A DNA stretch of 64,000 nt from Tubulanus polymorphus (GCF_964204645.1 NC_134033.1:6596231-6660230); one strand, 5' to 3'. Shown: positions 34,101 to 47,604, counted from the first letter of the stretch. Numbers and translations are program-made. Notes: generated by a model not told the origin, from the sequence alone.

Positions 34101-37100
34101 ATACTGACAGTTACATACTAAAAATCAAGACAAATGACATAACAAAAGATTTAAAAACATTAAAGCATCATTTTGACTTAAACAATTATCCAAAAGATCA
34201 TGAACTATTTAGCAATGATAATAAAAAAATTCCTGGTAAATTTAAAGATGAATTAGGGGGCGATGAAATGATTGAATTTGTTGGGATAAGAAGTAAAATG
34301 TATAGTTATAGAACAAAAGATCATGAAGCTAAAAAGTTAAAAGGAATAACAAAACATGTGGTTGATAAACACATAGAATTTCAAGATTATATAAAGTGTT
34401 TATACAACTCAATTGTAATGAAACATAAAATGAATCGTTTAAGATCAGAAGATCACGAGATGTACATTAATGAAGTTGAAAAAACTAGTTTAAATCTGTT
34501 CGATGATAAAAGATATATTTTGGGTGATGGAATAAAAACATTACCTTATGGCGATTAAAAAAGAAAATCAATATCATCATACTCGAAATCACTATTGGCT
34601 TCTTCATTTTCATTTAATTGTTTAGGTTCTTCCATTTCATTTTTTCTCATTTAAATTAAGTTCTATATTATTCCACATTGCATCTAGCTCTCTTTGTTTC
34701 TTTTTGTTCGTTAATTCATCAAATGGAATTATAATATCGATGTTTAAAAAATTTACAATCTTATTTAAACAGAATTCATAATTAATTGAATCTGTTATTT
34801 TATTATCCACATAATATTTTAATATGTTTGTGAATGTTTCTTTTATATTTCCCATATCTTCTTTTGTTAATTTAGGTTTTTTTTATAATAATCGTTAAAT
34901 GATCTTTCTTAGTTATTTCACCATTTTTATTTTCTATCATTTACATTTTTTCAAGCCATTGCTTATATTCTGGTGTATGATCTTCCATAGAAAATATCTT
35001 AACAATTTCATCTAGATATTTCAATTTTGGTTCTATAGAAACTATATATATATATATATATATATATATATATATATATATATATATATATATATATATA
35101 TATATATATATATATATATATATATATATATATATATATATATATATATATATATATAGTTTTTTCATCACCCCATAAATTTCTTTGCAATCCACATTCA
35201 TTACAAAATATCACAGAATCTTCTTGTCTTAAGTACACATAAATACATTGTGGGCATTTTTTTTCAAGTGTTTCTTCATTATCTGGTAACGTTTTCTCCT
35301 ATTTCATGTTTTCTAATATATTATTTTTTTATTTCATTGAATTCTGCTTCAAATTTATTAGAAATTTTATCTATATGTGCTTTACGAAATTGATGATTTT
35401 CCCAATCTTCTATATTTTCAGGGCTATATATCATTCGACAAGGCTCACAGAAATGATCTTTTATATCATAAGAAAGGTCTAAGAAATAAGAAAGGTCTTT
35501 TCCAAATAATCTCAGGTTCAGTTTCAACAGAATTATTATTACTTTCGTTACTATCAACATTAACCGTTGAGTCATTAATTTTACACTTCTCTAAATGTTT
35601 TTTTAACATAATTTCTTGAGAATGATTTATTACAATTTGGGCAGTTTATTTTAGGGGGTTTATAATTTTTATCATGTTTTTCATAAGTCGAGGCATATTA
35701 CTTTTTCTTTGAAGTTCACCACAAATTTCACATGCTATCTTCTCATCCATTTATTTAAGAAAAACTTTATTAAAATTAATTTTTAATGGTTCGAGGTAAT
35801 TTTTTTGTGTTATAAATAATTGTTGAATTAAAAGAAAATAGAATATCTGTTGATTCTAGAAAACTTACAAATTATAAATCACATAATTTACTATTACAAT
35901 TAGATAGAGAATTTAAGAATTGTGTTGATTTGAAATTAGTAAATGTAAGTTTATGTAATTCTTTTTACAATATATCGGATAAAAGTTTTGATCATTAAAA
36001 ATATTAAAAATAAAAATAAATGGGTTCATCTTATTCTAACACCAGGATTATATAATTTAGAAACATTAGCGCAAGAAATTAATAGAAAAGCCCGGTTGAA
36101 ATTAGGCGGTGATGCTGGATTTAATATTAAATTTTTTGAAAGTGAAAGTTCCGATGAAATTAAAATAAAGTTTGATAATGAAAATTAATATGCTTTCAGG
36201 GTAAAAAAAACCAATAGCTAAACTGTTAGAGTTACTCCAGATAATATTATCTTAGGAAACTACATGAAAGGTAGCTCGAATATAATACCTTTCACAAATT
36301 TTTATATTTATTGCAATTTAATTGACCCTGTAAAAACTTTCGAAGCAAGTAAAGATACAATTTGTAATTCTAGTATATTAAATATTTTACCATTAGAAAA
36401 TGTTAAACAATTTGGAACGCAAATAAATTATAATTTAGCTGAATGTGATTTCAAACCTTGTATTCCAAAATTTAATAATTTTAGATTAGAAATTAGAAAT
36501 CATAATGGAAACTTAATTGATTTAAATGATTTTCCTGTAATTTATGAATTAGTTATAAGATGTAAAGAATATTTTTTCACTATATAAATGAATATAACAG
36601 TAGGACCGAGTATATGTTTTGGATTTGATTTTAAACGTGAGAGAGAAATGAAATATAACATTAATGATGTAATAACACATATTAAAAATATTGCATTTTC
36701 TAATGAAACAACATTAGAATATGAAACAACAATAAATAAAGAAACTTTTAATGTAGAAAAGATTACTGATTTAATTAGAGAGTCTTTAGGATTTTATGAA
36801 TTAGATGAAGATTTTATTATTAATGATATTTAAAAAATAATGACTGAAATATATGAAAATGAAACTAATAATATGATAAATGTTGAAATAATTATAACTA
36901 AGATAACTAATTATTTTGATGATAGTAATTTTTTTTCTAAATAAATGGCCGATCAGAAGTGGATAATAACTGGTTTATATAATGGAGCATTTTTATCAGT
37001 CGGAACTGTTGGTTATACAATGGTATGAAAAAAAGTATTTAAAATGGGAAGTATTAATGTTGATAAATTTGATATCAATGATATTTTGAAATTAACATTA

Positions 37101-47604: not shown

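Follow-up and report, generated by a model that had tools for sequence, protein, structure and literature searches.

The window, i.e., the whole stretch of 64,000 nucleotides that we analysed, contains an AT-rich island at 27.1-46.7 kb (~23% GC, relative to 35-47% in most of the flanks) that holds a decayed Polinton, with sulfotransferase pieces and LTR retrotransposons around it, from which we would place it in an animal host. Several Polinton genes of this copy are broken by stops, frameshifts and inserted repeats. The left part of the island carries a broken protein-primed DNA polymerase B gene (27151..34558, plus strand; start not locatable) with a LAGLIDADG intein and later insertions. 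Three polymerase pieces matched DNA_pol_B_2 below the cut-off (E-values of 1.8e-4, 0.004 and 0.05); a polymerase piece in the relative L020 scored 39 bits, above the cut-off, supporting the protein-primed PolB that characterizes Polinton/Maverick elements (Polintoviricetes). The intein region (30700-34110) matched Intein_splicing (E-value 0.0025), LAGLIDADG_3 (23.9 bits, above the cut-off) and PI-PkoII (E-value 0.0018), and the intein seems to be placed at the catalytic DTDS motif, a position at which inteins of giant-virus polymerases also occur. Inteins are a rarity in animal genomes and frequent in the polymerases of giant viruses. Inside the intein there is an insertion of 2.4 kb (31622-33997) that has long terminal inverted repeats.

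The rve integrase scored above its cut-off (36.1 bits), with an additional weak chromodomain match, and the packaging ATPase matched Pox_A32 (E-value 3.7e-10), as expected of the integrase and the A32/FtsK ATPase of a Polinton. For the major capsid gene, a predicted model of the homologue in the relative L004 (pLDDT 58.5) matched PBCV-1 VP54 and other double jelly-roll capsids, with E-values of 1e-9 to 1e-13 and TM about 0.45-0.5; by this model the homologue folds as the double jelly roll of a Polinton capsid protein. The candidate for the single jelly-roll penton gene (35816..36587, plus strand; homologue of L004:565-1329) had no Pfam match, and its label as the penton gene, which follows the sequence-only reading, is putative. 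Among the scanned proteins of the window and of L004, the latter being incomplete at both ends, there was no match to an adenovirus-like cysteine protease. This gene is reported in 74% of Polintons (PMC4028283); its absence is compatible with group 2 Maverick-Polinton (mavpol2), where we would guess from gene content that the element belongs. The uncharacterised genes gave no sign of a TBP or of any other known family; a diverged member could escape detection.

The ends of this copy appear to be lost, as a comparison of 25.5-27.4 kb with 46-49 kb gave no match that would represent terminal inverted repeats or a target-site duplication. A palindrome near the left end was considered as a hairpin telomere and rejected, because its sequence matches a repeat dispersed over three places in the window (27058-27180, 54900-55092 and 11903-12094), one that has a short hairpin core and is inverted-duplicated at 54.9-55.1 kb. 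This repeat resembles the hammerhead-like ends of Penelope retroelements; Rfam gave no match within 25-56 kb of the window. A second AT-rich, more decayed Polinton-like fragment with tandem repeats lies at ~700-2500, and its part at 888-1067 is a 30% match to the protein of L004:125-469. Related copies of the element were abundant in one sequencing run with the same organism label, occurring across all 30 bins and mostly 90-99% alike. Three other contig runs (X6, X7 and X8, of which X7 may be RNA) covered little besides the repeat inserted in the capsid gene, a result that does not bear on expression.

Gene starts in the window copy

The sequence-only reading had listed twelve Polinton ORFs as starting at a TAAATG that overlaps the start codon, mostly behind a T-run, and both observations held when counted. 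TAA precedes ATG at all 12 listed starts; when both strands of 35200-46700 are counted, it does so at 19 of the 396 remaining ATGs (Fisher p 4e-15). In tblastn searches with proteins of the relatives L004 and L001, the alignments began within ~30 nt of each of the 12 starts; since each thus coincides with a homologue N-terminus, the set was not merely picked by the motif. A T-run (at least four Ts, 6-22 nt upstream) was found at 9/12 starts and at 1/19 of the TAAATG sites that are not starts (p 1e-4), with the literal AATTTTT upstream of seven.

On the minus strand the motif heads a zinc-finger/VLTF3-like gene (35748..35753, ATG 35750) behind a T-run, a start that is supported by homologues, and this gene is arranged head-to-head with the putative penton gene. 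On the plus strand it heads an uncharacterised gene (36585..36590, ATG 36588), a small gene (36942..36947, ATG 36945) and an intact 138-aa ORF (37204..37209, ATG 37207), each with a T-run, followed by a SLATT-like gene that is split by a ~500 bp insertion (37640..37645, ATG 37643; no T-run) and whose L004 homologue has a weak SLATT_fungal match (E-value 0.0013). A large conserved uncharacterised gene starts with a T-run at 38592..38597 (ATG 38595), and the broken major capsid protein gene at 40798..40803 (ATG 40801). Neither the rve integrase-chromodomain gene (43343..43348, ATG 43346), which is A-rich upstream, nor the A32-like packaging ATPase gene (44470..44475, ATG 44473) has a T-run; the TAA of the latter is the integrase stop, and this start and that at 36588 are the two of the twelve where TAA doubles as the stop of an upstream frame. 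T-runs are again present at a conserved uncharacterised gene (45272..45277, ATG 45275), a small conserved gene (45813..45818, ATG 45816) and, on the minus strand, a 109-aa ORF ending at 46303 (46630..46635, ATG 46632).

The putative penton gene had been read as carrying the same motif with ATG changed to ATA. The ATA is present, at 35816-35818 rather than 35817, and it lines up with Met1 of the homologue in L004. Because that homologue itself starts at TAAATG, and because reads of related copies disagree with the window at this start (355/357 reads at one position), we read the ATA as a start codon that decayed in the window copy and rejected initiation at ATA. One further motif-bearing start is missing here, since two separate L004 genes (2996-4324 and 4328-5785) run as one frame at 39052-40772. 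The repeat that interrupts the capsid gene (~41919-43188) is 1.27 kb long with ~150-bp internal units, and a second copy lies inverted at 8202-9314.

The motif in related elements

An ATPase alignment identified 22 related loci in metagenome contigs, ranging from 20 to 45% GC. A start was defined as the first ATG after a stop; only ORFs having a homologue in some other locus were used, and 15 ORFs with N-terminal truncation were excluded, of which 3 had TAA. Of the starts defined in this way, 51/61 were TAAATG, compared with 120/2893 other ATGs; the count was 48/55 after removing the near-duplicates L006 and L016, and 68/87 when no homology filter was applied. These loci are related to each other, such that p-values overstate their independence. 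In the six GC-richer loci (37-45% GC), 18/20 starts were TAAATG. The ATPases of the motif-bearing loci are 45-79% identical to that of L004, a near-intact locus in which every ORF starts at TAAATG apart from a single internal start and a pair of nested antisense frames; among its TAAATG-headed genes is one for a deoxynucleoside kinase (L004:10340-10981; dNK, E-value 1.7e-31). Several exceptions elsewhere keep TAAA one or two bases further upstream (L007, L015 and L018), two are spurious internal frames, and in L017 neither of two starts was TAAATG. No further relatives were found in viral-contig scans (with P0001, A1, A2 and integrase queries), two genome-contig scans or a phage collection.

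A fifth viral-contig scan recovered only distant virophage-like loci, and these served as AT-rich controls. In five such loci, with distant ATPases, TAAATG was found at 0/56 starts (0/39 without near-duplicates), the commonest start context being TAT-ATG. In these viral contigs (L023-L027) the gene starts are preceded by a T-run and then a TA-repeat initiator, i.e., the layout is alike and the word is different. At the level of sequence comparison, the TAAATG starts are confirmed as a real, lineage-wide feature of these Polinton relatives.

The arrangement of the starts is informative about what the motif may do. Eight head-to-head gene pairs were available, with gaps between the ATGs of 4, 4, 6, 19, 24, 27, 30 and 72 nt, and 15 of their 16 starts are TAAATG (16/18 when a ninth pair with a spurious antisense ORF is included). 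At three loci the integrase and ATPase start codons are only 4-6 nt apart in a palindromic junction (L011:1429-1434, L013:1587-1594 and L014:1019-1024), and gaps this short cannot accommodate leaders that do not run into the opposite gene. Position -3 was T in 92% of 53 starts, and animal ribosomes prefer a purine there. There is no AG before the ATG at the starts, and a stop abuts the start at only 1 of 64 TAAATG starts of the relatives.

Upstream of the motif, a T-run was present at 24/54 starts of the relatives. Among 46 TAAATG starts, 20 lacked one, and where it was present it ended 5-9 nt before the TAA in 17/26, which can be compared with a spacer of ~5-7 bp in vaccinia late promoters (PMC5294985). 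No second box stood out at -20 to -100 of the starts.

We also looked at signals for transcript ends. AATAAA occurred 147 times in coding strands, relative to 151 expected from synonymous shuffling (47 kb), with at least one inside 46/67 genes; in one subgroup internal AATAAA fell below expectation (12 vs 20, z -2.6), and a nuclear control had too few counts to be informative (2 vs 3.3). AATAAA was near only 2/18 convergent gene ends, a spurious pair excluded. At 25/64 motif starts the sequence reads AATAAATG, so that these starts themselves carry a poly(A) signal; the other 39 are without AATAAA. Depletion of the poxvirus early stop TTTTTNT in coding strands was examined and set aside as not specific, all A and T runs being depleted, in the controls too; AAA was not depleted in the motif-bearing loci (observed/expected 0.9-1.5). 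In the window, a predicted hairpin with a 14-bp stem between convergent genes (46221..46283; z -3.75, with 1/200 shuffles as good) is a candidate transcript-end signal. Together with this one, strong hairpins unrelated in sequence were seen in convergent gaps or after the ATPase in three relatives (L001:3011-3160, L005:3527-3676 and L002:788-937; z -3.8 to -8.7 for the four). Hairpins were not general in the relatives, being found in 4/17 intergenic gaps as compared with 2/68 coding windows. Those between convergent genes are reminiscent of the mimivirus hairpin rule; hairpin transcript ends are described as a mimivirus trait, not a poxvirus one (PMC4402537).

A VLTF3-like gene and the search for an RNA polymerase

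The minus-strand gene at 34637..35750, which is broken by a (TA)n run at ~35040-35160, combines zinc fingers with a domain similar to the poxvirus late transcription factor VLTF3. The piece at 34640-34882 scored 27.9 bits against Pox_VLTF3, relative to a Pfam cut-off of 25. Its full-length homologues P0114 and P0115 have C2H2 fingers, a zinc ribbon and a helical domain; Pfam Pox_VLTF3 gave no match to these full-length proteins. In Atlas, the VLTF3-like part grouped with VLTF3 clusters (0.93), and 26/30 matches were to VLTF3. A predicted model was too poor (pLDDT 46) for its structural matches to have meaning, and further searches for VLTF3-like homologues returned nothing or P0114 and P0115 again. 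The distant L018 gave a weaker VLTF3 lead (Atlas 0.89-0.91), a candidate that was not similar to P0115 by BLAST.

Neither the window nor the scanned proteins of the loci, none of which is a complete element, yielded an RNA polymerase subunit. VLTF3 homologues have already been published in coral polintoviruses (PMC11131425). Mriyaviruses, which are thought to replicate in the nucleus, are described as having VLTF3 and no RNA polymerase (PMC11253617), and since these viruses keep VLTF3, the VLTF3-like gene does not imply a viral polymerase.

Candidate readers of the motif

The reading we lean towards, by somewhat better than an even chance, is that TAAATG serves as a late initiator for leaderless messages, recognised by the RNA polymerase that a co-infecting helper nucleocytovirus supplies; this helper need not be a poxvirus. 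Transcripts would start in the AAA of TAAATG and acquire a 5' poly(A) leader by slippage, so that the poor T(-3) context would become AAA-AUG. The VLTF3-like protein of the element may act as an adaptor that recruits or redirects the late machinery of the helper, and the integrated element would be silent until the host is infected, as mavirus is. Pointing in this direction are the motif itself and its conservation, the frequent T-run, the divergent starts 4-6 nt apart, the AATAAA that is not avoided, the polymerase intein at the DTDS motif, the VLTF3-like gene and the undetected RNA polymerase. Counting against it are the T-run at fewer than half of the relatives' starts, the AATAAA deficit in one subgroup, the motif starts that themselves carry a poly(A) signal, the hairpins, which are few and of a mimivirus rather than a poxvirus kind, the VLTF3 of mriyaviruses, the lack of a Pfam match for the full-length VLTF3-like homologues, and the need for a cytoplasmic polymerase to gain access to an integrated copy. 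A poxvirus or a relative of one is the best candidate for the helper and takes about half of the probability we give to a helper polymerase; we favour it because TAAAT(G) is described for poxviruses and because related elements of group 2 occur in entomopoxvirus occlusion bodies. The late motifs of asfarvirus, mimivirus and CroV are described as differing from TAAAT(G/A) (PMC5294985).

The sequence-only reading had also taken these genes to be built for a helper polymerase rather than host Pol II alone. The closely spaced divergent starts, the T at -3 and the AATAAA counts agree with it, but the VLTF3-like factor, which it had missed, keeps a helper-free model with host Pol II under consideration. 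According to that model, to which we give roughly one chance in four, TAAAT is a private late promoter to which host Pol II or host factors are brought, in the nucleus and after replication, by the zinc-finger/VLTF3-like protein that the element itself encodes, analogous to the late factors of beta- and gamma-herpesviruses and to nucleocytoviruses without RNA polymerase. The presence of the gene in the window, the weaker lead in L018 and the VLTF3 of coral polintoviruses and of mriyaviruses would fit this model, as would integration, which places the element in the nucleus. However, there is no box at a TATA-like distance upstream, the frequent internal AATAAA and the few at convergent ends are a poor fit to nuclear 3' processing, and Pol II messages starting inside TAAATG would be leaderless unless Pol II slips. 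The VLTF3-like gene also starts at TAAATG itself, so some other trigger would be needed first.

A role in translation or RNA processing, either as stop-start coupling on polycistronic messages or as a poly(A) signal or splice acceptor at gene junctions, we consider improbable. Many genes are in tandem, two window starts abut an upstream stop, and the AATAAA-containing starts of the relatives would suit such a role, but the single abutment among the relatives' starts, the majority without AATAAA and the head-to-head starts that keep the motif despite having no same-strand upstream gene all weigh against it, and the lack of AG before the ATG means that the motif is not a splice or spliced-leader acceptor. 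Slightly less probable again is that the motif is a relic of a helper-dependent ancestor with no current role; while the window copy is decayed, the motif is kept across proteins 45-80% identical, across 20-45% GC and rearranged gene orders, and in loci with intact reading frames. The element is AT-rich and the stretch contains 19 non-start TAAATG, so that AT bias, or selection of starts by the sequence-only reading, might be suspected. The start versus non-start counts refute this; enrichment over the AT-matched background that the sequence-only reading implied is pronounced (~4-5% of other ATGs as compared with 78-100% of starts), it persists in the GC-richer loci and the AT-rich controls do not show it, leaving chance next to no credibility.

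It has long been asked whether animal Polintons live as autonomous nuclear viruses or as virophages that depend on a helper; no virions have been seen. A lineage-wide poxvirus-type initiator makes their lifestyle testable and provides a sequence handle for finding the helper. More speculatively, and with a probability well short of even, a widespread animal Polinton lineage might consist of endogenous virophages of poxvirus-like viruses, with every gene placed behind the late initiator of the helper and a VLTF3-like factor of their own that captures its late machinery. If this were true, large DNA viruses would have an inducible parasite residing in host genomes, and the motif would predict pox-like viruses of aquatic invertebrates that are yet to be discovered. 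If instead the helper-free model were true, host Pol II would be steered to leaderless starts by a VLTF3-like factor, which would be a novelty as well. Full-text literature searches (title, abstract start and term counts; subscription journals, Repbase reports and preprint supplements being outside their scope) found no TAAATG or late promoter in animal Polintons, and 'TAAAT' had zero occurrences in the Polinton papers matched by full-text term count. Protist virophages are already known to have helper-matched promoters; one of poxvirus type that recurs across Polintons of animal type appears to be undescribed.

One of the closest known systems is the poxvirus late (and intermediate) promoter, described as having a TAAAT(G/A) initiator and a 5' poly(A) leader (PMC5294985, PMC6211774). 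The likeness to the vaccinia late promoter that the sequence-only reading had drawn was borne out and extends to the relatives: TAAAT(G) lies over the start codon, a T-rich tract is found a few bases upstream, across a short spacer, in about half of the starts, and there are very short bidirectional arrangements. Unlike in vaccinia, the element is small and integrating, the motif stands at the head of almost all of its genes, no RNA polymerase gene was detected in it, the T-tract is often absent, and the transcript start in the AAA and the poly(A) leader are predictions. A second comparison is with the helper-matched promoters described for mavirus and EMALEs (TCTA, as in CroV late genes), for Sputnik and for Gezel-14T (AAAATTGA, early) (PMC8547959, 10.1101/2022.07.28.501842). 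As in these virophages and these PLVs (Polinton-like viruses), a single motif lies upstream of the majority of genes in an integrating double jelly-roll element of 15-25 kb and matches a promoter class of large viruses. Theirs, however, are protist hosts with known Imitervirales helpers, whereas here the element is a Polinton with pPolB and rve whose host genome appears to be that of an animal, its motif being of the poxvirus type and its helper hypothetical.

Two groups of Polinton relatives also invite comparison. The entomopoxvirus-associated PLVs AHEV_PLV1 and CBEV_PLV1, of the mavpol2 clade, are reported in occlusion bodies (PMC11296320); they are likewise Polinton-related and tied to a poxvirus by that occurrence, a comparison made by description only, and the words 'promoter', 'motif' and 'transcription' do not occur in the main text of that paper, nor 'promoter' in its supplement. 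Coral polintoviruses also have a VLTF3 homologue (PMC11131425), the domain being fused behind C2H2 zinc fingers in the present element, and 'promoter' had 0 occurrences in the text of that paper, its supplement being outside the search. The cytoplasmic virus-like elements pGKL1/2 of yeast are linear pPolB elements with a TAAAN initiator, at which slippage is described as making a 5' poly(A) leader (PMC6211774); they differ in having an RNA polymerase and a capping enzyme of their own, in using an upstream conserved sequence, and in that they do not integrate and code for no capsids.
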